From sequence record NC_049852.1: a stretch of 51,643 bases of DNA, one strand, 5' to 3'. The position numbers were made by a program, and so were the translations under genes. The notes beneath the pieces are model-generated. The model was not told the DNA's origin. It saw only the letters and a program-made list of their open reading frames with translations, and searched no databases. The stretch's first letter is position 1. Each line of letters opens with the position of its first letter. Below, piece after piece: positions 1 through 51,643 of this stretch. This DNA is from Escherichia phage egaa.

Positions 1-406
1 CAAGTGTTTCATATTCATCTGGCGAGTAGTTCGCTAGGTTTGGTGAGACCTTAAGCATCGACTCAGCAACCTGGCGTTTTGCTTTCGCTACAGCCTTCTC
101 AAGCGCGGCCTTGTTGTACACCCTGCGATTCGGCGCACTAACAATAGCCACATCAAAGTAATTTTCTCCGAAATATTCGCTATCAGGGCCGTAAGGTTTC
201 TTTGAGACTGAAACTCTCCCCTTCTCCGCCACTTCTGGAACGCGCCCCATAATCTGACGGATATATGATCCAGCATTGCTGGCTGACTTCTTGCCCTCCA
301 GGTGCTGCCTTACCCATCTTTCAGGTATCTGGATCGATTCGTGCAATCCAGATGCGAGCGCAATCGCAACCTTGCGAAGCTCATTTGTAAATACAGATTC
401 ACTCAT
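1..406 (-). CDS. hypothetical early protein, N-terminal part (ORF runs off window start; absent from ORF track)
   Basis: ATG at 406-404 preceded by AGGAGG (rc of 411-420); minus frame open to position 1 (about 135 codons, MSESVFTNELRKVAIALASGL...). In frame with the open reading frame at the window end if the sequence is circular. Confidence 0.55.
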   Translation of the reverse strand, partial: MSESVFTNELRKVAIALASGLHESIQIPERWVRQHLEGKKSASNAGSYIRQIMGRVPEVAEKGRVSVSKKPYGPDSEYFGENYFDVAIVSAPNRRVYNKAALEKAVAKAKRQVAESMLKVSPNLANYSPDEYETL

Positions 407-585
407 GCTTTATACCTCCTCGTGACTCAGTGACTGCATTATCATTTACCGCCACCTGGTGTGTCAACTGTTTTTTGTTGTTACTGGCGGTTTTCCGATG
501 TTATCTTTTCAGAACATAACAAGATTCGCGTTTTTTTTCTTATAAATCAATGTTGTTTTTGCGTGTTATCTAAAAAAGCGCGGAT

Positions 586-720
586 ACGCCCCCACCCCCA
601 TATACACACCAACCAATACACAACCACACACAACCACCAAAAATACATCAGACATCAATATGACCACATAACACACACAACAGATAGTAATTTATAGATA
701 CATATAAATAAATAATCCTT
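586..720. repeat. CA-rich, G-depleted low-complexity tract followed by AT-rich segment
   Basis: cccccaccccca...atacacaaccacacacaacc...; almost no G on plus strand; shares 13-mer atacacaaccaca with 22840-22852; approximate coordinates. Confidence 0.6.
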
Positions 721-729
721 ATTTTTTAG

Positions 730-820
730 TATGTTATATGGATTTCTCTTGTTATTTTTTGTTATGCGATTCCACGCCGGAATAACACGCATAACAGCGA
801 TAACAGAAGATAACAGTTGC
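730..820. promoter_or_regulatory. inverted iteron array: 3x TGTTAT then 4x (G)ATAACAG at 9-10 bp spacing
   Basis: tatgTTATatgg..cttgTTATttttttgTTATgcg ... aATAACAcgcATAACAGcgATAACAGaagATAACAGttg seen directly; helical-turn spacing typical of iterons or operators. Confidence 0.5.
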
Positions 821-1000
821 GCTCGCCAGGATTGCCGAAAAGGATGCGAGAGGATCGCGTTTCTCTATCCCCTCCACACAAAAAGTTAATCACTTGATTA
901 AAATTGATCAAACTCAAAGTCTCACAATCCAGGCGATCGCGAATGATTTATTCCTGTTATTCCTGATTAATGGAATAGGTGGAATAATAACCAGTAAGCA

Positions 1001-1045
1001 AATAGCACTTTTTGTTAAAACTGAATTGCCCTGATCGGGTACATT
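1001..1045 (+). promoter_or_regulatory. conserved 20-bp element AATAGCACTTTTTGTTAAAA + 21-nt spacer + TACATT (-10-like); putative early promoter
   Basis: exact 20-mer at 1001-1020; ATG of downstream gene at 1083; 11-bp inverted repeat ctgatcgggta/tacccatcag encloses the -10. Confidence 0.6.
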
Positions 1046-1082
1046 AGACACATCGAAACGAGATACCCATCAGGAGATAGCA

Positions 1083-1592
1083 ATGAACATCAGCAAAACC
1101 ACTTTCAACTTTGCAAAGCGTCACGGTCTGGATCTGACTGTTGAGGATTTTGGCGATGTTCTGCAACTCTGCATTTGGGAAGCGGATAACGATTGCGAGT
1201 GGCTTTGCTCTTATCGTATCAATTACGATTGCTTAACCTGGCACGACAATATCTATCTGCCGCAAGAAGTGAAAGAGGAATTGCCAGCAACCATCAACAA
1301 CGAAGTTTTTTTTGCGCAAAGTCCTGAAGTTTATTGCCGAGGAGATCAAGAAATGATTAGTGAAGTGGATTTTGAACTTGCAGAGGCCCAGGTAAGGGCC
1401 AAAAAGATGGGGTTGCGGATCTTGACGGAAACAGTCGAGTTCCCGTCGATGCCGTTCGCATCATTCCATAAAGTCACCGTATTAAGTCGCAAACGCGAGT
1501 GTAACGCTCTAATACCTGTCGGTGATGATAAACGCATGGCTAAATTCATTAACGAGTCATGTGATGTTCTGAAGGCTGTTAAACACGGTTAA
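1083..1592 (+). CDS. hypothetical early protein (169 aa)
   Basis: ORF track; RBS caGGAGatagcaATG; downstream of promoter element. Confidence 0.7.
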   Translation: MNISKTTFNFAKRHGLDLTVEDFGDVLQLCIWEADNDCEWLCSYRINYDCLTWHDNIYLPQEVKEELPATINNEVFFAQSPEVYCRGDQEMISEVDFELAEAQVRAKKMGLRILTETVEFPSMPFASFHKVTVLSRKRECNALIPVGDDKRMAKFINESCDVLKAVKHG

Positions 1593-1611
1593 CAACAAAG
1601 GGGAAATAAAG

Positions 1612-1878
1612 ATGGCGCGAATCAATGCACCTATTCCAGTTAAGCGCAAAGCACGTTTGCTCAATAACGGGTGTTACGCCCTGCGGCCTGCATTTAAGGA
1701 TCGCACCTTTCCGGTTATCGTTAACGTGTCGCACGTAAGCCGTAGCGGGAATCTGGCCTTTGTTAACGGTGAGGATCTGTCGGCGCTTGGATTCTATGGC
1801 GGTATTTACGGTGAGGCGCTTGGATTCTGGATTAAAGATCCGTTAACTGGCGAGCGCGAAATCGAATTCCTGGACTAA
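1612..1878 (+). CDS. hypothetical early protein (88 aa)
   Basis: ORF track; RBS gGGGAaataaagATG. Confidence 0.65.
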   Translation: MARINAPIPVKRKARLLNNGCYALRPAFKDRTFPVIVNVSHVSRSGNLAFVNGEDLSALGFYGGIYGEALGFWIKDPLTGEREIEFLD

Positions 1879-1922
1879 ATAGCACTTTTTGTTAAAACTC
1901 AATCCTCGCGATCCGATATATT
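1878..1922 (+). promoter_or_regulatory. conserved 20-bp element + 22-nt spacer + TATATT; putative early promoter
   Basis: aatagcactttttgttaaaa at 1878-1897, TATATT about 1917-1922; 9-bp inverted repeat aatcctcgc/gcgaggatt flanks -10 and overlaps RBS. Confidence 0.6.
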
Positions 1923-1955
1923 ACACACATCGACAACGAATGCGAGGATTTGAAA

Positions 1956-2108
1956 ATGGTTACTCTGATTACCTGGGAACACGAAAACAGCCAGCCGGAA
2001 GTGCGCGAATTTGAAACTGTAGCGGCATGTTATAACCTGGCGAAAAATGGCGGATTCTATAAGGCGCAAATTGTTAACGAATTTGGAGTTGTTGACTATG
2101 AGTTCTAA
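1956..2108 (+). CDS. small hypothetical protein (50 aa), not in ORF track
   Basis: ATG 1956 with RBS GAGGAtttgaaaATG, 58 nt after element; MVTLITWEHENSQPEVREFETVAACYNLAKNGGFYKAQIVNEFGVVDYEF; stop overlaps start of next gene. Confidence 0.5.
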   Translation: MVTLITWEHENSQPEVREFETVAACYNLAKNGGFYKAQIVNEFGVVDYEF

Positions 2109-2388
2109 GTTTTACAGCTATACCGATACAGTGGATTTTGAGGGGATACAATTGCCCCTCCCGAACATATACCGCTATATCACGCGTGACGAACGCGGAT
2201 TTATTGAAGCGTGGCGCTCAAAGCCTGTGCGTGATCTTGAGTTTGGCGGCTTCCGCTCTCTTGAGGGTGAGTTGCCGATCTGCTTCGGTCATCAAAGCGG
2301 TGAAAATCTTCCGGTTGTTGCGCGTCAGTATCGCAGACACAAGATCACAAGGGCACTTATCTCTTTAACTGGATCTGTTGTTGAATAG
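2098..2388 (+). CDS. hypothetical early protein (96 aa; internal ATG of track ORF 2047-2388)
   Basis: Track ORF start at 2047 lies inside upstream ORF; in-frame ATG at 2098 has GGAG 8 nt upstream; TAG stop lies inside next promoter element. Confidence 0.55.
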   Translation: MSSKFYSYTDTVDFEGIQLPLPNIYRYITRDERGFIEAWRSKPVRDLEFGGFRSLEGELPICFGHQSGENLPVVARQYRRHKITRALISLTGSVVE

Positions 2389-2459: not shown

Positions 2460-2654
2460 ATGGAAAATCAAGTTGATGTTAAAGTTGTACAGCGTGAAAC
2501 CACTCACGAGAAAGGAATCTTTAAGAAAGGCGCTATCATCACCATTGATCTTGAGGATATGGTTGCGTATCACTCCGGCCTGACATGGAACGTTGTTAAA
2601 CATGGCAATGCTTTCAAACTGCGTGGATTCAATACTTTTATGGAGGTTGTGTAA
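2460..2654 (+). CDS. hypothetical early protein (64 aa)
   Basis: In-frame ATG (codon 18 of track ORF 2409-2654) with RBS GAGGAtttaaagATG; track start lies inside promoter element. Confidence 0.6.
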   Translation: MENQVDVKVVQRETTHEKGIFKKGAIITIDLEDMVAYHSGLTWNVVKHGNAFKLRGFNTFMEVV

Positions 2655-3037
2655 TGGCCTACACAAACAGCGATTTTAAAAACTCAACTGAAACAATCAA
2701 GGCACAACTCATTAAACAACGCGCTTATAGATTCTGGCTTGATTATCATGATCTAAGGAAAGAGATTGATAATATTATCAAGACTGGTAGCGCGTTCTGT
2801 TCTAACAGGACGGTTTGGCGCAATATGAATGCGCAGTACGGCCATGGAAAAATTCGTGTATTTGGTGAGGCTGTTGAAGCGTATGTGTTTAGCGCAACAA
2901 AAGCTGTAAGTTTTAACGTTGTTGGCATTAATCAGATGAGACTAATAATATTTCATAATTCCTGGATGATTCCCGTTTCTAATGATCATTATGGCGGAGA
3001 CGGAAAGCGAGCAAATCGCCATAGCTATTTCAACTGA
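2654..3037 (+). CDS. hypothetical early protein (127 aa)
   Basis: ORF track; start overlaps upstream stop (gtgtaATGg). Confidence 0.6.
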   Translation: MAYTNSDFKNSTETIKAQLIKQRAYRFWLDYHDLRKEIDNIIKTGSAFCSNRTVWRNMNAQYGHGKIRVFGEAVEAYVFSATKAVSFNVVGINQMRLIIFHNSWMIPVSNDHYGGDGKRANRHSYFN

Positions 3038-3079
3038 TAGCACAAATTGCTAAACAATATTTCTCAAACCTGATATAGT
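3037..3079 (+). promoter_or_regulatory. variant element ATAGCACAAATTGCTAAACA + 21-nt spacer + TATAGT
   Basis: variant of the 20-mer (GAATTG/AAATTG subfamily) directly after TGA stop 3035-3037; ATG of next gene at 3110. Confidence 0.5.
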
Positions 3080-3109
3080 TACCACACCAAATATAATGAG
3101 GATTGCATA

Positions 3110-5183: not shown

Positions 5184-6767
5184 ATGAATTTTTCGTTTGA
5201 AACCAACAAACTAACACCAAAACAAATTATCGAATTAGCTGATGCACAAGGATTGTCTCCGGTGCGCGTGTCCATTCAGGCAAACGGATACCGTCAATCG
5301 TCCAGCTTTTGGGGTGAGGTTAATGATGTTAATAACGGAAATGATCGCTACCCTGTAATTTCTCTTGGCAATGATGTTGATGTTGTTGGTAAGTTGGCGC
5401 GCAACATTGCTCGCTCAGTTCAGTTCCCTGAATCATCGGCATATATGCATTTTATCGGCTGCGTGTCTGCTGCAATGCTTGGACGCTTCACGGTTGAGTA
5501 TCACGGAACGGATCAGCCGACCGCTCTTTATGTTGTCACAAGCCAGCCTCCTTCAACTGGTAAATCTGCCGTTAACAGCCTGGCACTTGCTCCAATGGTT
5601 GCAGAAGTGGAAAGAATTAACGATCAGCGAAAGAAGGAAAGAAAAAAGATTCAGGCAAAGTTGGCAGGTCTTGCAAAAGAGATGAAAAGCGAGCGCTCCG
5701 GCGCTGATATGGAATCTCTATACCAGGAGAAAGAAGATCTGGAAGAAAAACTGGAAAAGATGTGTGACATTGTTTTCCCTGTGTCCGACACCACGCCGGA
5801 AGGACTTGCAAGAATCAACAATCGCCAGGGTAACTTTGCTGTGATTTCAGACGAGGCAACGAGTATTAACAGCCTTTTAGGTCTGACATATGCTAATAGC
5901 GAACGTAAAACCAACAGCGAACTTGTGCTGAAAGCATGGGATCATGGTCATGTTTCTATAGCTCGTGCAAACGCTGACAACAATATGAGTTTTAAAGCTC
6001 TTGGCTGTATGGCGGTGATTGCCCAGGATGAAACAATCAATGCCATCATGGATGCAGGATCGCGCGGTATCGGTGTGAGTGAGCGTTATTTGCTTGTGCG
6101 TGAGGAATCATTTTTAGGTCGTCGAAAGTTTGTTGATGATAACGGTGATTCTACTTATGAGCCTGTTGATGGAGAACTGAAAAGTCAATATTTTAAGCTG
6201 ATCCATAACATCATGAGTGAATCAAACATCCAGCTTAAGATCAGTAAATCAGCAATGCGAGTTCTTAACATGGCTCGTCAGGAGATGGAGCCGCACCTTG
6301 CTGATGGCGGAAAGTATTCGCATACAATGCTGCGCGGTGCTCTTGGCAAAATGGATAAGCAGGTGATCAGGATTGCTTCGGTTTTGCACACTATCCGCAA
6401 CTGGTTTAATCCTGGTGGATACCCTCAGAAGTCGAAAGAGATTGAAGTTGAAACCGTTCAAGAAGCACTGCTGATGTTTAGCGAGTTGAGCAAAACATAC
6501 ATTAGCGCCGCCAACGCTTCTGGCTATGCTGGTGATGATGCTGAAATGGGTAAACTAATCGAGATTATCACTCGACACGGTAAGGCTAACAAGGGGATCT
6601 TGAATGTTCGCGCCATATATGAGGCTGCACGAAAAGTTAAGCCGTTTGTTGGCCAGGCTGGCGTAATGAAGCGTATGGAAACGCAACTGCTGCCGATGCT
6701 TGAAGAAAGAAATTATATTTGTGTGATTAATGGCGTTGTTTTTGTAAATCCAACATTGCTGGGGTAA
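5184..6767 (+). CDS. P-loop NTPase-like early protein (527 aa)
   Basis: In-frame ATG (codon 22 of track ORF) with RBS aaAGGAGttatcatcaATG; Walker-A-like QPPSTGKSA; coiled-coil KKERKKIQAKLAGLAKEMK; function unknown. Confidence 0.65.
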   Translation: MNFSFETNKLTPKQIIELADAQGLSPVRVSIQANGYRQSSSFWGEVNDVNNGNDRYPVISLGNDVDVVGKLARNIARSVQFPESSAYMHFIGCVSAAMLGRFTVEYHGTDQPTALYVVTSQPPSTGKSAVNSLALAPMVAEVERINDQRKKERKKIQAKLAGLAKEMKSERSGADMESLYQEKEDLEEKLEKMCDIVFPVSDTTPEGLARINNRQGNFAVISDEATSINSLLGLTYANSERKTNSELVLKAWDHGHVSIARANADNNMSFKALGCMAVIAQDETINAIMDAGSRGIGVSERYLLVREESFLGRRKFVDDNGDSTYEPVDGELKSQYFKLIHNIMSESNIQLKISKSAMRVLNMARQEMEPHLADGGKYSHTMLRGALGKMDKQVIRIASVLHTIRNWFNPGGYPQKSKEIEVETVQEALLMFSELSKTYISAANASGYAGDDAEMGKLIEIITRHGKANKGILNVRAIYEAARKVKPFVGQAGVMKRMETQLLPMLEERNYICVINGVVFVNPTLLG

Positions 6768-10500: not shown

Positions 10501-10546
10501 AATTATGCCCGACACAAGGCCGGGCGTTTTAACAAAAAGTGCTATT
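10501..10546 (-). promoter_or_regulatory. conserved 20-bp element (minus orientation) + 23-nt spacer + ATAATT
   Basis: rc of 10527-10546 = aatagcactttttgttaaaa; contains TAG stop of 10542-10781; hairpin gcccggc-cttgtgt-cgggc in spacer; leader CGAAACGAA...GAGGA. Confidence 0.6.
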
Positions 10547-15557: not shown

Positions 15558-15575
15558 ATGTCACTGCTACTTTTA

Positions 15576-15599
15576 CCCCGCATTGCGGGGTTTTTTTTT
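15576..15599 (+). terminator. intrinsic terminator after primase
   Basis: ccccgc-att-gcgggg followed by T9. Confidence 0.8.
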
Positions 15600-15656
15600 G
15601 CCTTAGCAAATGCTATTATCTGCATTGACATTAACATGCAACATGGGAGAAAACGC

Positions 15657-17984
15657 ATGGCAATTTACAGAACCGGACAGGCGTCAATGGACGCTCAAGG
15701 TTATATAACTGGATACGAAACGAAATGGCGAGAGCAACTAACGCTCATTCGCCCTGGTGCAACAATCTTTTTCATTGATGCACCATTTCAAGCGGCTGTG
15801 ATCAGTGAAGTTATCAGCGATACACAAATCCGCGCCATCACAACTGGCGGCGCTGAAATTGGGCGAAGCAACTACATTATTTTGCTGCATGACTCAATCA
15901 CTGTTGACGGCTTGGCGCAAGATGTTGCTGAAACGCTGCGTTACTATCAAAGTAAGGAAACGCAGATAGAGGAAGCAATTGAATTTTTCAAGAACTTTGA
16001 TCTGCAAAAGCTGATTGATTTACGTGATGAAACAGTGAGGAATGCAGTATCAGCCGCACAAAGCGAGCAAAACGCATTGCAGCAAGCAAACCGAGCCGAA
16101 ACGGAGGCTGACAGAGCGCATCAAGCGGTTGTAGGTTATCAGGGCTGGAAATACGAAAGAACTGTAAACGCTCCAGTGGGTGCGGAAGATGCAAAGTATT
16201 ACCCTGTGATCTTCCAAGAAAAAAACGTGGGTGATATGTCTCATTTAGGCGTTTTCTTCCAGATCTCAACTAGAAATATAACTGGTAATCATCCTTATAA
16301 TTCAGCGTCATTTGCTGGCTATGCTCGTACTTCTGGATGGAGTGACGGCGTTGATAGCGTTTATGGTAATTTCACTATCTATCAGAAAGATGAAAGAACT
16401 ATTGATTCTATTTTGATGCCAGCGAAAGCAACAGAAAAGGCGTTTGCAGTTTACATTCGCGGCGGCGCATTTCCTGTGAGAATTCACTGTGAAAGCAATA
16501 TTGATGTTGTTGTTCCAACATCAGATTATGCTCCAGATGGTTTTGTTGAAAACGCAACAGTGTTTAAGTTTGGCGCGACAGATCCGGGCGCTGAATGTAC
16601 AGAAGTAAGGGCAATGGTTTTAACTAACACAGGATTCTATGCGATTAATGATTATGTTATCCGCGATATTCTTTTGTTTAGGGATGGTCTTGGATTGGGT
16701 GAGAGACAAATACCAAGATTTTCCGATCTAGATCTTGTTCATCAATATTCTGGAGCTGATGAGCTTAGTGGGATCTTGAATTTACACGCAAAGGGTGATG
16801 ATGGTGTTTCTCGCGGTTATTCTCGCGTGTATGCTGAAAAGCAAACTGGATTATGGAAAACAACAATACATACAGCAAACAATGAAGGAGATAAACACGC
16901 ATACCTGCAATTTGATGAAGACTCAAATTTATCAGGTCTAAATTATGTTGAAATCAATGGGGCTGGTGGGCTTTACTCTAACGGGTGGATTACTGCAAAA
17001 CAGGCAATGCGAGTTGGCTGCGGAACTGCCGACGGAGGTAATAAAGATATTTACCTGACAAACGCAGCAGGAGATGGAGGCGCTTGGGGTTGGGTTAACC
17101 TCCTACAAGGTAACTGGCACAGTGGTTACTGGCAATTAGGTGCTGTAAGTGGTGATGCTGCAAATATAGCCCATACAAAACTACTGATTAATAATCAAGG
17201 GACTGACGCTAAAGAGTTTAGATTCCACAATGATTACGGCGGCTACGTGACGGCGCAACGTGGCTTTAATGGTCAGTGCATACAAGGCTCATGGGGGCTT
17301 GAATGGGATTTTATGGGTTCTCCTTTTCATGCCAACTCAGTACAAAACAATGATGGTGGTTGGAGTCCTATTGTTTCTGGTGGCTCTGTATCAACTGGCG
17401 GTTATTCTATGCGAGCTGGTTTTGGTGTGATATCAAACGGTAATGCCGCGTGGCCTGATGTAACGATAAAGTTAAATGGTGATGGTCGTTATCATCGCGC
17501 ATATAATTTTAGTTATTCTGGTAGCATTTATTCTTGGGGTAATGATCCGTGGGGTGGAAATTATGACTTCGCAAGAAATCCAACATCCGATCGTGATTTG
17601 AAACACGACATTAAGTATACAGACGGAAAGGAAAGCTACGATCGCGTAATGCAATGGTTGCCTGCCATGTTTAAATATAACGGATCTGATGTTCAACGTT
17701 TTGGCCTGATAGCTCAAGATCTGTTAAAAATCGATCCACAATATGTGAAACTCGTTCCAGGCTCACCGGTATTTGAGGATGTGATTGGAGTTGACGAAAA
17801 TGGTGAGGAATACATTGATCGTCAGATTGAAACTGACAGAAATGATGATACATTGGCGCTTGATAGCAACGTTATGCTAACTGATATGGCTTGCGCTATG
17901 GTTTACATGGGAGGAATGATCGAAAAACAGCAAAAGGAGATAGACGAATTAAAGGCGGCTGTTGCTGCACTGCTCAATAAATAA
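15657..17984 (+). CDS. side tail fiber protein with C-terminal intramolecular chaperone (peptidase S74-like) domain
   Basis: 775 aa from ATG with RBS GGGAGaaaacgcATG (track start lies within terminator); Gly-rich beta-rich body; C-terminal NPTSDRDLKHDIKYT...FGLIAQDLLKIDPQYVKL matches the S-D-x-x-L-K autoproteolytic chaperone signature. Confidence 0.7.
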   Translation: MAIYRTGQASMDAQGYITGYETKWREQLTLIRPGATIFFIDAPFQAAVISEVISDTQIRAITTGGAEIGRSNYIILLHDSITVDGLAQDVAETLRYYQSKETQIEEAIEFFKNFDLQKLIDLRDETVRNAVSAAQSEQNALQQANRAETEADRAHQAVVGYQGWKYERTVNAPVGAEDAKYYPVIFQEKNVGDMSHLGVFFQISTRNITGNHPYNSASFAGYARTSGWSDGVDSVYGNFTIYQKDERTIDSILMPAKATEKAFAVYIRGGAFPVRIHCESNIDVVVPTSDYAPDGFVENATVFKFGATDPGAECTEVRAMVLTNTGFYAINDYVIRDILLFRDGLGLGERQIPRFSDLDLVHQYSGADELSGILNLHAKGDDGVSRGYSRVYAEKQTGLWKTTIHTANNEGDKHAYLQFDEDSNLSGLNYVEINGAGGLYSNGWITAKQAMRVGCGTADGGNKDIYLTNAAGDGGAWGWVNLLQGNWHSGYWQLGAVSGDAANIAHTKLLINNQGTDAKEFRFHNDYGGYVTAQRGFNGQCIQGSWGLEWDFMGSPFHANSVQNNDGGWSPIVSGGSVSTGGYSMRAGFGVISNGNAAWPDVTIKLNGDGRYHRAYNFSYSGSIYSWGNDPWGGNYDFARNPTSDRDLKHDIKYTDGKESYDRVMQWLPAMFKYNGSDVQRFGLIAQDLLKIDPQYVKLVPGSPVFEDVIGVDENGEEYIDRQIETDRNDDTLALDSNVMLTDMACAMVYMGGMIEKQQKEIDELKAAVAALLNK

Positions 17985-41750: not shown

Positions 41751-43319
41751 CTATTTGTTCCGCAAACCTGCCAATTTTTTCATTCTTCCTACCGGATCAT
41801 CTGCCATGTTCATTTCAATGTTAACAGCATCAATGATGTTATCAACAATATCATCATGAGGATGCGAATCATCGAATGTAAACGCCGCAACTTCAGCCAG
41901 TATCTCAGCCAGCATAGGGTGGGATTCTGGAAGTGCTACGCGTCCGGCGCGCATTACTGGCGCTGCGTCCATTGCACGAGTAACCTTGTCTTTATCGCGC
42001 TGAACAGGATTGATCTTGATCATGATTTTTTTCGCTGCGCTCTGAATCAAGCCAGTGCCAGACGATTTATCTTCAACATGAATCCTTCTCAACGTTCCGC
42101 ATTCTTTATTGCGCTTCCAGCACTGATTAACGAACGCAACAAAATTAGTCTCAAGGTCTGGCGCTTCCCATTTTCCGCGAACACCATCAATGAAGTAAAC
42201 GCGATCTTTATACATCCCCCAATAACAGATCACGGAGTAGTCGTTAAGCTCCCCTGTTTTCTGCGCGGTATCAACCGTGATAAATGTATATTCAAAGCGA
42301 TCCGGTTTTGGTAGCGTGCATTTCTCGCTGCTTCCGTAATACTGAAACCACTCTGTTTTAAACACGTTGCCGCCAAGCGCAACAGGCTGTTGCTGATACT
42401 GACTAGCAAACGTGTACGGATCAGCATTTCGAAGTGCAAGTAATTCCTCCGCGCTTTCCTTAGCAGGCCAGAATGAATAATGAGCAACACCATCAATCAT
42501 TACTGGCTTACTGGACAAAACATCGCGATCAAACTCAGGCTTTAACCAATCAGGAAGCGTTTCGCGATATTCCTTAGTAACGAGCGCCGGAATACTGACC
42601 ACCTTAAACTGGATGCCGCCCATGCCGCCGTTTGTCATGAACCATGTTGAATCATTGACGTGTAGCCGTTGCTGGACCATTACGATTGGCGTGGTGTCCT
42701 TCATTCGACGTGATCGCACCGTGTTCTTTAGGCGCATGTGTCCGGCTTCGCGCTTCACCTTAGAAAGCATATCATCCGGCTTGTCTGGATCGTCAAGAAC
42801 CAGCATACCAGTAAATCCATCATCCATGTAGCCGCCACGCAGACCAGTAACCTGACCACCGATAGAACGCGAGTTGACTTGTAATTTAACCTTGCCGCCA
42901 TCTGTTACAATCAAATCCTTTGCACTAGCCTTTGCCAGCTTTCCAGGCCATAGCTCCTGCCATTCTGGAGAACCAATAATCTCTTTGATGCGGTTGCTAT
43001 TCTGCTGGACAAGGCCATCACTAAACGAAAGATTAAGATTTCGCACCTTCTTACTTTTCAATGACGCATAAGGTGACATGTGGATCGAGAATATCTCTGT
43101 TTTACCACTACCTGGCGTTATGTTGAAAATTACATTCTGTGACTCGCCTTTGATGATTTTTTCAACTTCGCTGCATAGGTAACTGAAATGCCAGTTTCCC
43201 AAGAACCTTTGCCCCTGGAGAAGTTGAAACCAAATGCGGATCATCTTTTCGAATGAATATTCGCTCATTTCCTTAACGGCGCGTTTTTGCGCCGCTGTTA
43301 AGTCTTCCCAAATCAGCAT
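41751..43319 (-). CDS. terL: terminase large subunit
   Basis: 522 aa; Walker A ITPGSGKTE; C-terminal nuclease-like region; start overlaps terS stop (TAATG). Confidence 0.85.
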   Translation of the reverse strand: MLIWEDLTAAQKRAVKEMSEYSFEKMIRIWFQLLQGQRFLGNWHFSYLCSEVEKIIKGESQNVIFNITPGSGKTEIFSIHMSPYASLKSKKVRNLNLSFSDGLVQQNSNRIKEIIGSPEWQELWPGKLAKASAKDLIVTDGGKVKLQVNSRSIGGQVTGLRGGYMDDGFTGMLVLDDPDKPDDMLSKVKREAGHMRLKNTVRSRRMKDTTPIVMVQQRLHVNDSTWFMTNGGMGGIQFKVVSIPALVTKEYRETLPDWLKPEFDRDVLSSKPVMIDGVAHYSFWPAKESAEELLALRNADPYTFASQYQQQPVALGGNVFKTEWFQYYGSSEKCTLPKPDRFEYTFITVDTAQKTGELNDYSVICYWGMYKDRVYFIDGVRGKWEAPDLETNFVAFVNQCWKRNKECGTLRRIHVEDKSSGTGLIQSAAKKIMIKINPVQRDKDKVTRAMDAAPVMRAGRVALPESHPMLAEILAEVAAFTFDDSHPHDDIVDNIIDAVNIEMNMADDPVGRMKKLAGLRNK

Positions 43320-43840
43320 TATATCTTCTCCAGAATGTCAATTACCGCCTCTTTGACTTCCTCCGCCGTTACAGCGTCAACGCTGGCGCTTGTGTTATTC
43401 TCAATGGTAACGGTGGCTGGCTTTTCAATGCCGATCTCCTTACCGATGAATCCGGCGTTAACAATATTGTTTGCGGCAAGCTGGAATTTTTGCTCGTAAA
43501 CAACGCCGTCGATAAAGTCCATAACCTCGCTGAATCCTGGCTCACGTCGCCATTTTTCAAGTACGGAAGCAGAAAGGCCAGCGAATAATCGGAATCCGTT
43601 TAAGGTGAACACTCGCGGCTTGTGAATCTTGCTTTCGTATACGTCACCCTGAAAGGATGCCGTTTCCGCAGCCTGTATATGGTTTTCCTCCGCCCACGTA
43701 AAGTAACGTACAGCCAGATCAAATACCTGTTCCGGCGTGTACTTGTGCGCCTTTGTCATTTTTGCAATATCGCCATATTGCTTATTATATAGTTTTTTAA
43801 AGTTGCAAGCCTTTACTGCTGGCTCAACGTTTTTAGCCAT
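43319..43840 (-). CDS. terS: terminase small subunit
   Basis: 173 aa from ATG with RBS aAAGGAGGgcgcattATG (codon 58 of track ORF); immediately upstream of terL. Confidence 0.6.
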   Translation of the reverse strand: MAKNVEPAVKACNFKKLYNKQYGDIAKMTKAHKYTPEQVFDLAVRYFTWAEENHIQAAETASFQGDVYESKIHKPRVFTLNGFRLFAGLSASVLEKWRREPGFSEVMDFIDGVVYEQKFQLAANNIVNAGFIGKEIGIEKPATVTIENNTSASVDAVTAEEVKEAVIDILEKI

Positions 43841-43859
43841 AATGCGCCCTCCTTTATAA

Positions 43860-43913
43860 CAAAGACTCATTATAGACAAATTGCAGGCAATAAAAAACCC
43901 GCCATTTGGCGGG
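43860..43913 (-). promoter_or_regulatory. terminator hairpin (cccgcc/ggcggg + T-run) followed by TATAAT: putative packaging-operon promoter
   Basis: minus strand cccgcc-aaat-ggcggg + TTTTTATT then tgtcTATAAT about 25 nt before terS RBS. Confidence 0.45.
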
Positions 43914-43920
43914 TAGTTGT

Positions 43921-44160
43921 TCAATACTTGTATTTTACTTTTTCTGGATTTGTCTTCATAGTGCTGTGAATCCTGCCACCGATTGATAAGTAGTGACCGC
44001 GAACCTGCCAAACTTTCTGATCTTCATCCCAAAACGCTAAAGCAAACTCACCCTTTTTTGACTTATAGCGAACACCAACAGCCACCACGAAAGATACAGC
44101 AACAAAGCCGATTAGAACACCAATGATTAAAGCAACAAAACCAATAATTACAGAACTCAT
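43921..44160 (-). CDS. small membrane protein (79 aa)
   Basis: N-terminal transmembrane helix IIGFVALIIGVLIGFVAVSFVVAV; ATGA overlap with upstream gene. Confidence 0.6.
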   Translation of the reverse strand: MSSVIIGFVALIIGVLIGFVAVSFVVAVGVRYKSKKGEFALAFWDEDQKVWQVRGHYLSIGGRIHSTMKTNPEKVKYKY

Positions 44161-45109: not shown

Positions 45110-45424
45110 TTAAAAATCGTCGAGCAACTCACGAAAGTTGTTAAGCGTTGCAACCTTAGCGCAATCCCACTCCGTCGATCCAGCTTCTTCCCACGGAGAA
45201 CCAGGCCCGTGATTTGTCATGTCGTCGATTAGTGATGAAATTTCATCAACAACAATCTCTTTCAAATGCTCTCTGTGCTCTATGTCTTCCACTGGCTCAA
45301 AAGCCTGAATAACACCGCCTAAAACCTGTTGCTGGGCTTTTGCCTTGTCAAAATCATCATGAATGAAACGATGCTCTTTCTTGTTCTCGTTTGTCCCTAT
45401 CTGGTAGTAGTGAATGTAAATCAT
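45110..45424 (-). CDS. hypothetical acidic protein (104 aa)
   Basis: ORF track; ATGA overlap with upstream gene. Confidence 0.6.
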   Translation of the reverse strand: MIYIHYYQIGTNENKKEHRFIHDDFDKAKAQQQVLGGVIQAFEPVEDIEHREHLKEIVVDEISSLIDDMTNHGPGSPWEEAGSTEWDCAKVATLNNFRELLDDF

Positions 45425-45654
45425 AATCCTGCATCCTCCGCAGTCTCGTTTTTGCGCTTCCAGTCTTCAATAGCTTTCTGAATGTATCCTGCCTCGTTAC
45501 GCCAGGCGGCAGTTTCTGCCGCTCGCGTTGGTGCTGGTGTGAGTTGACGACAAATCTGATCCGCAACCTCACCCATAGCGCCTTCCATACCAAAGCCAGA
45601 AATGTAGCACATAACTTGATATGCTTGCTTCTCTGAAAGGTTAATCGTGATCAT
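45421..45654 (-). CDS. hypothetical protein (77 aa)
   Basis: In-frame ATG (codon 7 of track ORF 45421-45672) overlapping upstream stop (ATGA). Confidence 0.55.
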   Translation of the reverse strand: MITINLSEKQAYQVMCYISGFGMEGAMGEVADQICRQLTPAPTRAAETAAWRNEAGYIQKAIEDWKRKNETAEDAGL

Positions 45655-50814: not shown

Positions 50815-50860
50815 TATTATGCCTGGTTATCGTTTTTGAGTTTTAACAAAAAGTGCTATT
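50815..50860 (-). promoter_or_regulatory. conserved 20-bp element (minus) + 23-nt spacer + ATAATA
   Basis: rc of 50841-50860 overlapping TAA stop of 50860-51045; hairpin gggcggc-acggcgt-cgccc in leader. Confidence 0.55.
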
Positions 50861-51277: not shown

Positions 51278-51323
51278 TATTATGCCAGGTTTTGCGCCTG
51301 GCGTTTTAACAAAAAGTGCTATT
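51278..51323 (-). promoter_or_regulatory. conserved 20-bp element (minus) + hairpin spacer + ATAATA
   Basis: rc of 51304-51323 exact 20-mer; hairpin gccagg-cgcaaaa-cctggc; leader CATCGAAACGAGA...GAGGA. Confidence 0.6.
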
Positions 51324-51328
51324 TCCGC

Positions 51329-51577
51329 TCAGAGTCCGACATTCTCCTCATCGAATGCAGCCACAAGCCTTGCAAATACCGGATCTCTAGGCATTTCAAT
51401 TTCAATGACTTTGATTTCTCTTCCGCATAGGCTTGTGTAAATCTCGCTCGCATCAGATAGCATGTCGCTAAACTCCTGCGCGGTGATTTCACATGCGGTC
51501 AAGTGGAAATCAACCAGTTTGTTAAAGCCAATTTCATCAATTTTTTCCATCAGTTCATCAAGAGTAAGTTTGCTCAT
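51329..51577 (-). CDS. hypothetical acidic protein (82 aa)
   Basis: In-frame ATG (codon 6 of track ORF) with RBS atGAGGAGtaataaaATG. Confidence 0.55.
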   Translation of the reverse strand: MSKLTLDELMEKIDEIGFNKLVDFHLTACEITAQEFSDMLSDASEIYTSLCGREIKVIEIEMPRDPVFARLVAAFDEENVGL

Positions 51578-51581
51578 TTTA

Positions 51582-51643
51582 TTACTCCTCATCGGTAAGA
51601 TATGTTTCTTTAATGATCGCGTGAAAGTCTGCGATCGCCTTAG
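51582..51643 (-). CDS. C-terminal fragment of a gene entering from beyond the window end (probable continuation of the 1-406 ORF across a circular junction)
   Basis: Frame starting at 51641 reads KAIADFHAIIKETYLTDEE-stop, TAA at 51582-51584 overlapping the RBS of the next gene; this frame joins in phase with the 1-406 ORF. Confidence 0.4.
   Translation of the reverse strand, partial: KAIADFHAIIKETYLTDEE

Follow-up and report, generated by a model that had tools for sequence, protein, structure and literature searches.

The record of Escherichia phage egaa (NC_049852.1) is a linear sequence of 51,643 nucleotides, all of which was analysed here and is referred to below as the window, and at each of its two ends an open reading frame on the minus strand runs off the sequence. 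Are these frames the two parts of one gene and, if so, what does a gene that is cut by the ends of a record say about the completeness of the genome and about the packaging of its DNA? We conclude, with a probability of roughly 95 per cent, that the window holds the entire genome of a T1-like Hanrivervirus siphovirus (about 51.6 kb), that this genome was turned into a linear record by an arbitrary opening inside one gene, and that the break is a by-product of assembly. The features needed to read the two ends are the following (vojen, haarsle and damhaus are related phages).

1..406, minus strand: 5' part of the spanning gene, with codons 1-135 and base 1 of codon 136; its orthologues include vojen_5, haarsle_1 and damhaus_51.
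51582..51643, minus strand: 3' part of the spanning gene, which comprises the remaining two bases of codon 136, then codons 137-155 and the TAA stop codon at 51584..51582.
415..421, minus strand: Shine-Dalgarno sequence of the spanning gene (GAGGAGG), read directly, 8 nt before the ATG at 406.
51329..51577, minus strand: next gene of the operon (82 aa, PHROG 31863), with its ATG at 51577; 249-nt orthologues are annotated in vojen, haarsle and others.

Read directly from the minus strand, the ATG at 406..404 opens a frame without a stop codon down to base 1, a stretch of 406 nt that amounts to 135 codons and one further base (G). The other end, from 51643 to 51582, reads CT followed by KAIADFHAIIKETYLTDEE and TAA. 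Joining base 51643 to base 1 by script brings the G and the CT together as one alanine codon (Ala136) and yields a single open reading frame of 155 aa, which terminates at the TAA at 51584..51582 and whose product reads MSESVF...YETLAKAIADFHAIIKETYLTDEE. Its final two sense codons, GAG GAG (51590..51585), double as the Shine-Dalgarno sequence for the gene that follows (GAGGAG TAA TAA A ATG). The first-pass annotation had proposed a minus-strand frame open from 406 to position 1, a GCT codon that bridges the ends in phase to give a protein of roughly 155 aa, and a TAA that overlaps the ribosome-binding site of the next gene; direct reading confirmed all three, with the length of the joined frame being exactly 155 aa. 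The start of the next gene in the list of open reading frames (51592, for 51329-51592 on the minus strand) is too far upstream, and both the annotation of relatives and the coverage of the PHROG profile point to the ATG at 51577 (82 aa).

Agreement in phase is expected by chance one time in three, and a second minus-strand frame is also open over the join, for 115 aa. Both observations would be compatible with the window being an incomplete contig, in which the fragments at the ends come from different genes, or from one gene whose middle is missing, and meet in phase by coincidence. We therefore tested the join by homology, searching the terminal 1 kb at either end of the window separately by megablast against related genomes, a comparison that the first-pass annotation had proposed as a check. 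In six Hanrivervirus relatives, the two ends of the window fall on neighbouring bases, with zero bases between them, at the following positions.

vojen: 2158 and 2157.
EC147: 41396 and 41395.
damhaus: 35812 and 35811.
ESh4: 44632 and 44633.
pSf-1: 17380 and 17379.
haarsle: 875 and 874.

When the joined sequence was searched as 1,200 bp, it matched 16 phage records (coverage 81-100 per cent, identity 93-98 per cent), in one piece in all but one of them. An exact 30-mer over the join is found in the IMG/VR contig IMGVR_UViG_2974510867_000001 (48,613 bp), which is probably the same genome as haarsle. Alignments of the spanning gene with seven relatives contain 0 gaps, and the join thus neither loses nor duplicates a base.

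In vojen, haarsle, EC147, damhaus and ESh4, the annotation of the orthologue is one coding sequence of 471 nt for a hypothetical protein, and in seven of nine relatives translation gives an intact orthologue of 155-159 aa. The other two carry disrupted copies.

pSf-1 (KC710998.1), 16975-17444: orthologue annotated as two coding sequences, gp33 and gp34.
2019SD1 (NC_049820.1), ~42745-43206: orthologue with a 1-nt and a 2-nt deletion, which jointly restore the frame and leave about 75 codons scrambled.

A homologue in which the two fragments belong to separate genes had been named in the first-pass annotation as grounds for refuting a spanning gene. The two coding sequences of pSf-1 do not provide one: they stem from a 1-nt deletion (GAGAAGGCT changed to GAGAA-GCT) at a good distance upstream of the junction, which itself falls within gp34. 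The deletions in pSf-1 and 2019SD1 may be sequencing errors, or the gene may be dispensable.

Among the eight intact sequences, most substitutions are synonymous, pN/pS ranges from 0 to 0.29 in all 28 pairs, and variable sites are distributed over codon positions 1, 2 and 3 as 10, 3 and 29. These patterns indicate that the joined frame is under purifying selection. The product belongs to the Pfam family DUF7174 (PF23796), with residues 2-149 aligned to positions 3-148 of the 153-position model (95 bits against a cut-off of 27; E-value 4.7e-27), and PHROG 4841 matches residues 1-149; the single-domain Pfam model covers the join. A profile search recovered 27 clusters of homologues, all 150-159 aa long and all with PF23796; an exhaustive search recovered 43 representatives, nearly all of 147-171 aa and matched from end to end. 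The most conserved block of the family alignment, SPNLANYxPEEYATxAK, straddles residue 136 and hence the junction. Judged by this alignment, the cut between the ends of the window falls in the middle of the best-conserved motif of a protein that has a single domain.

The closest counterparts, vojen_5 (QHR65326.1), haarsle_1, damhaus_51 and URC25769.1 of EC147, are likewise DUF7174 and PHROG 4841 proteins of 155-156 aa, with 96-99 per cent identity to the spanning protein. The vojen_5 group is also placed in the same way, being first after a large intergenic region and followed by the same 82-aa gene. The copy in the window differs in being one codon shorter (it ends in LTDEE, whereas the vojen_5 group ends in LNDEEQ), and in the window only is the gene split over the ends of the record.

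Does the remainder of the sequence behave as a complete genome? A BLAST comparison of the whole window with the full vojen genome (50,709 bp) gave a single cyclic series of blocks in reverse orientation: window 1..1893 corresponds to vojen 2157..1, the window from 2386 onward to vojen from 50709 downward, and window 51643 to vojen 2158. The blocks cover 48,756 of the 51,643 window bases and 48,666 of the 50,709 vojen bases. The ends of vojen's own record fall at about window 1893-2386, a segment that aligns only in part. From this cyclic colinearity it follows that the window contains a full genome and that its record is a rotated one, and the earlier proposal that a gene spans the ends of a full genome thereby holds in both of its parts. 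The coverage of 96 per cent of vojen and a length of 51.6 kb, inside the 46-53 kb range of the relatives, also argue against an incomplete contig, a reading that we rejected on the zero bases between the ends in six relatives, the ungapped gene alignments, the Pfam model over the join and the colinearity with vojen, and to which we assign a negligible probability. The gene runs on uninterrupted, and the record is a complete genome in rotated form.

A nucleotide similarity of about 70 per cent or more over the whole genome is the ICTV criterion for a genus. With 94 per cent of the window aligning to vojen, in large blocks of ~91-96 per cent identity, the window belongs to Hanrivervirus (Drexlerviridae, Tempevirinae), to which the taxonomy of the matching records also assigns it. 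At 99 per cent or more, the window itself is not represented in the phage collection. Over the structural half, herni is the nearest relative, with a 24-kb region that is 97.6 per cent identical. Members of one species share at least 95 per cent intergenomic similarity (identity times coverage); the value for the window and vojen, the sole whole-genome comparison made at species level, is approximately 0.94 x 0.95, or ~0.9, and is under this threshold. Several segments of the window, among them 1940-2385, 2594-3108, 16004-17366 and 45350-45621, are without a vojen counterpart and look like mosaic replacements of a few genes. Segment 16004-17366 lies inside a large gene (15558..17984) that corresponds to vojen_59, annotated as 'tail fiber protein'. 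About 20 records named 'Campylobacter phage' (MG065640, MG065641, MG065679, MG065687 and others) are 94-97 per cent identical to coliphage Hanriverviruses and are classified as Hanrivervirus. They give C. jejuni as the host and are UNVERIFIED and unannotated, and their host attribution looks doubtful.

If the ends of the record are not the ends of the genome map, are they nonetheless the ends of the virion DNA? In principle, a linear record can reflect determined termini, either cos ends or short exact terminal repeats, in which case the gene would become whole only after circularization or concatemerization in the cell. Nothing specific favours such fixed ends here, apart from the fact that the records of some relatives start near this gene (that of haarsle, for example, 468 bp upstream of it). 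A comparison of the two ends detected no terminal direct repeat of at least 10 nt in the window, and the records of relatives break at many places, none of them at the position of the window's break. The terminase genes bear on the same question.

43319..43840, minus strand: small terminase subunit (173 aa, P22 gp3 family), with the start chosen after the annotation of vojen_27.
41751..43319, minus strand: large terminase subunit (522 aa), with a Pfam Terminase_6C nuclease domain, PHROG 38 (E-value 2.4e-106) and TIGR01630.

The small terminase matches PF16677 (GP3_package) with 36.3 bits against a cut-off of 29.4, PHROG 606 with an E-value of 5.9e-53, and the structure of P22 gp3 (PDB 3P9A) with an E-value of 3.4e-15; a PDB sequence search with the large terminase returned no match. 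The start of the small subunit in the list of open reading frames (TTG at 44011, for 43319-44011 on the minus strand) is too far upstream, and the annotation of relatives and PHROG coverage support the ATG at 43840. The window therefore encodes a small terminase of the P22 gp3 pac type, and its assembly closes on itself without a fixed terminal repeat, as the adjoining ends in relatives and the colinearity with vojen demonstrate.

Two published analyses concern the packaging of relatives, and a literature search on Hanrivervirus termini yielded nothing beyond these two. In phage TLS, restriction analysis demonstrated headful packaging from a pac site: the pac fragment was submolar, the DNA was terminally redundant, and the genome occurred in three to four variants that were partly permuted (PMC11447400). 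For the Hanrivervirus vB_EcoS-149_4M, PhageTermVirome called 'Headful (pac)' (PMC13507304). The window resembles the pac-type headful phages P22, T1 and TLS in its small terminase of the P22 gp3 family, its Terminase_6C large terminase and its circle-closing assembly without terminal repeats. Packaging of this type gives virion DNA that is terminally redundant and partly circularly permuted. The window differs from these phages in that the P22 pac consensus is absent from the region in which pac would be expected. Based on the terminase type and the relatives, we infer that the virion DNA of this phage is terminally redundant and partly permuted.

On this model, the P22-gp3-like small terminase would recognize pac on concatemers, and the large terminase would cut there and fill each head with a little more than a genome length. 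Successive headfuls would start at shifted positions and give rise to a terminally redundant, partly circularly permuted population of virion chromosomes, the shotgun reads of which would assemble to a circle that software then opens at an arbitrary coordinate. Bases 51643 and 1 are neighbours on replicating and concatemeric DNA and probably on most virion molecules.

The location of pac in TLS is informative in this respect. Position 1 of the TLS record is the assigned pac sequence AGATTT (PMC11447400), and the sole HindIII site in the first 7 kb of that record is at 5876, in agreement with the ~5,882 bp reported in the same study (PMC11447400). The TLS gene gp01 (589..1038) encodes a DUF7174 homologue, and the assigned pac is 588 bp upstream of it. 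The product of gp01 (YP_001285490.1) shares ~30 per cent identity with the spanning protein over residues 6-147 (Foldseek against BFVD, E-value 1e-8), and gp01 likewise opens the same early block, after a non-coding region of ~590 bp. TLS differs from the window in belonging to another genus (Tlsvirus), in having a dissimilar upstream region, and in having a record that starts at the experimentally mapped pac end, which leaves gp01 whole. Since the pac end of TLS is upstream of the homologous gene and not within it, pac is by synteny predicted to lie not at the ends of the window but in the following region.

407..1082, no strand assigned: intergenic region of 676 bp, rich in ATAACA/TGTTAT, that separates the leftward block from the rightward one (start at 1083).

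Packaging would then probably run towards base 1 and over the join, and chromosomes from the first headful would carry the spanning gene whole, close to their left end. Together with the small terminase type and the headful call for a Hanrivervirus, the position of the TLS pac end makes it very improbable that the ends of the window are fixed virion termini. The first-pass annotation had also called for a terminase-based prediction of the pac site. A P22 gp3-type small terminase was indeed found, but pac was placed by synteny only and was not located by sequence: AGATTT is absent from 407-1082, near-matches to the P22 pac 12-mer (at most two mismatches) occur only outside 407-1082 and look like chance, and a comparison of window 407-1082 with TLS 1-600 revealed no meaningful sequence similarity.

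The predicted pac region has a distinctive composition. ATAACA/TGTTAT words occur 12 times in 407-1082, where ~0.6 would be expected, which is ~20 times their density in the genome. Four ATAACA repeats, at 782, 791, 800 and 810 (within 782-815), follow one another in phase at intervals of 9-10 nt. Their spacing resembles that of iterons or of binding boxes for a terminase or regulator. The same intergenic region contains, at ~590-680 on the plus strand, a C/A-rich tract nearly without G (CCCCCACCCCCATATACACACCAACCAATACACAACCACACACAACCACC...), with strong strand asymmetry.

A map that closes to a circle could also belong to a truly circular replicon, such as a plasmid-like element or the episomal form of a prophage, in place of the linear genome of a headful-packaged phage, and two relatives were deposited as 'circular'. 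In phage records, this label commonly describes the topology of the assembly only. The window has a full module of virion and terminase genes, and its family consists of virulent T1-like phages with DNA that was shown experimentally to be linear and terminally redundant (PMC11447400). We consider a circular replicon very unlikely, about as improbable as fixed virion ends, and retain the reading of the window as an arbitrarily opened record of a headful-packaged genome.

The first-pass annotation had further described a leftward operon that continues over the junction with its 'element promoters'. The block does continue: beyond the join it takes in the small early genes and the terminase genes and, by colinearity with vojen genes 5-54, the structural genes. 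The spanning gene itself, in contrast, is preceded by a sigma-70-type promoter and has no such element before it.

438..467, minus strand: predicted promoter TTGACA-18 nt-GATAAT, with 11 of 12 consensus matches, 32 nt upstream of the ATG; predicted by consensus match only.

With this near-consensus promoter just upstream, the spanning gene comes first in the leftward block; the repeated elements begin only downstream in the operon, at 51322..51304 and 50859..50841. The elements in question correspond to the T1/TLS-type repeat, for which the consensus aaATAGCACnnnTTGnTAAAA was reported and whose function the authors of the TLS study regard as an open question (PMC11447400). In the window, the element ATAGCACnnnTTGnTAAAA is present in 16 copies, against 0.01 expected.

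Plus strand: copies of the element at 1002, 1879, 2385, 3037, 4435, 7280, 14554, 23052 and 33719.
Minus strand: copies of the element at 10545, 11565, 45939, 47285, 49804, 50859 and 51322.
51304..51322, minus strand: copy of ATAGCACnnnTTGnTAAAA in the leftward block, with the -10-like hexamer CATAAT 19 nt downstream, 76 nt upstream of the next gene start (51246).
50841..50859, minus strand: second copy of ATAGCACnnnTTGnTAAAA in the leftward block.

Most copies are co-oriented with their flanking genes, and every copy is followed, 19-20 nt on, by a -10-like hexamer (TATAAT, CATAAT, TATATT, TATAGT or similar) and then by a gene start. We considered the TTGnTA within the 21-nt element as a -35 hexamer for the downstream -10 and set this candidate aside, because a spacing of 22-23 nt is too far for a canonical sigma-70 -35. 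A hairpin common to all intervals between element and -10 was also rejected: strong G+C hairpins are found in only 7 of the 16 spacers, and these seven differ in sequence (dG between -7.5 and -14.5, with z at or below -3).

What might the spanning protein do? An AlphaFold2 model of the 98 per cent identical vojen_5 (mean pLDDT of 83) consists of a compact N-terminal alpha/beta domain with the order H-E-H-H-H-E-E (residues 3-89, pLDDT ~90) and two long C-terminal helices. A Foldseek search of the PDB with this model returned nothing significant, a PDB sequence search with the spanning protein returned no match, and NCBIfam has no model for it; a structure search of BFVD retrieved uncharacterized family members from T1-like phages only. 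Our best guess, and a weak one, is that it is an early protein that binds nucleic acid, with a winged-helix-like N-terminal domain and a helical hairpin. That DUF7174 proteins are sequence-specific DNA-binding early proteins that act on the phased ATAACA/TGTTAT repeats, with the hairpin possibly mediating dimerization, is a bolder suggestion that we regard as unlikely.

For packaging biology, the split gene contributes nothing new. Headful phages routinely assemble as arbitrarily opened circles, and the split is an ordinary, already explained outcome of linearizing such an assembly; the main value of the finding is practical and concerns annotation. Both end fragments should be annotated as one coding sequence on the complementary strand, joining 51582..51643 with 1..406, and not as two truncated genes, and the intergenic region 407-1082 would be a preferable place to open the record, as in TLS and haarsle. 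In practice, the window can be used as a complete Hanrivervirus genome.

The more interesting by-products are the 21-nt elements at a fixed distance from -10 hexamers and the ATAACA-repeat region, which touch on the open questions of the TLS authors. If DUF7174 binds within 407-1082, which corresponds by synteny to the TLS pac locus and which forms the switch between divergent early blocks, it could be a regulator or an accessory factor in packaging or replication of T1-like phages. In that case, the different repeat word upstream of the 30 per cent identical TLS gp01 (GAACA, not ATAACA) would represent co-variation of a protein and its site.
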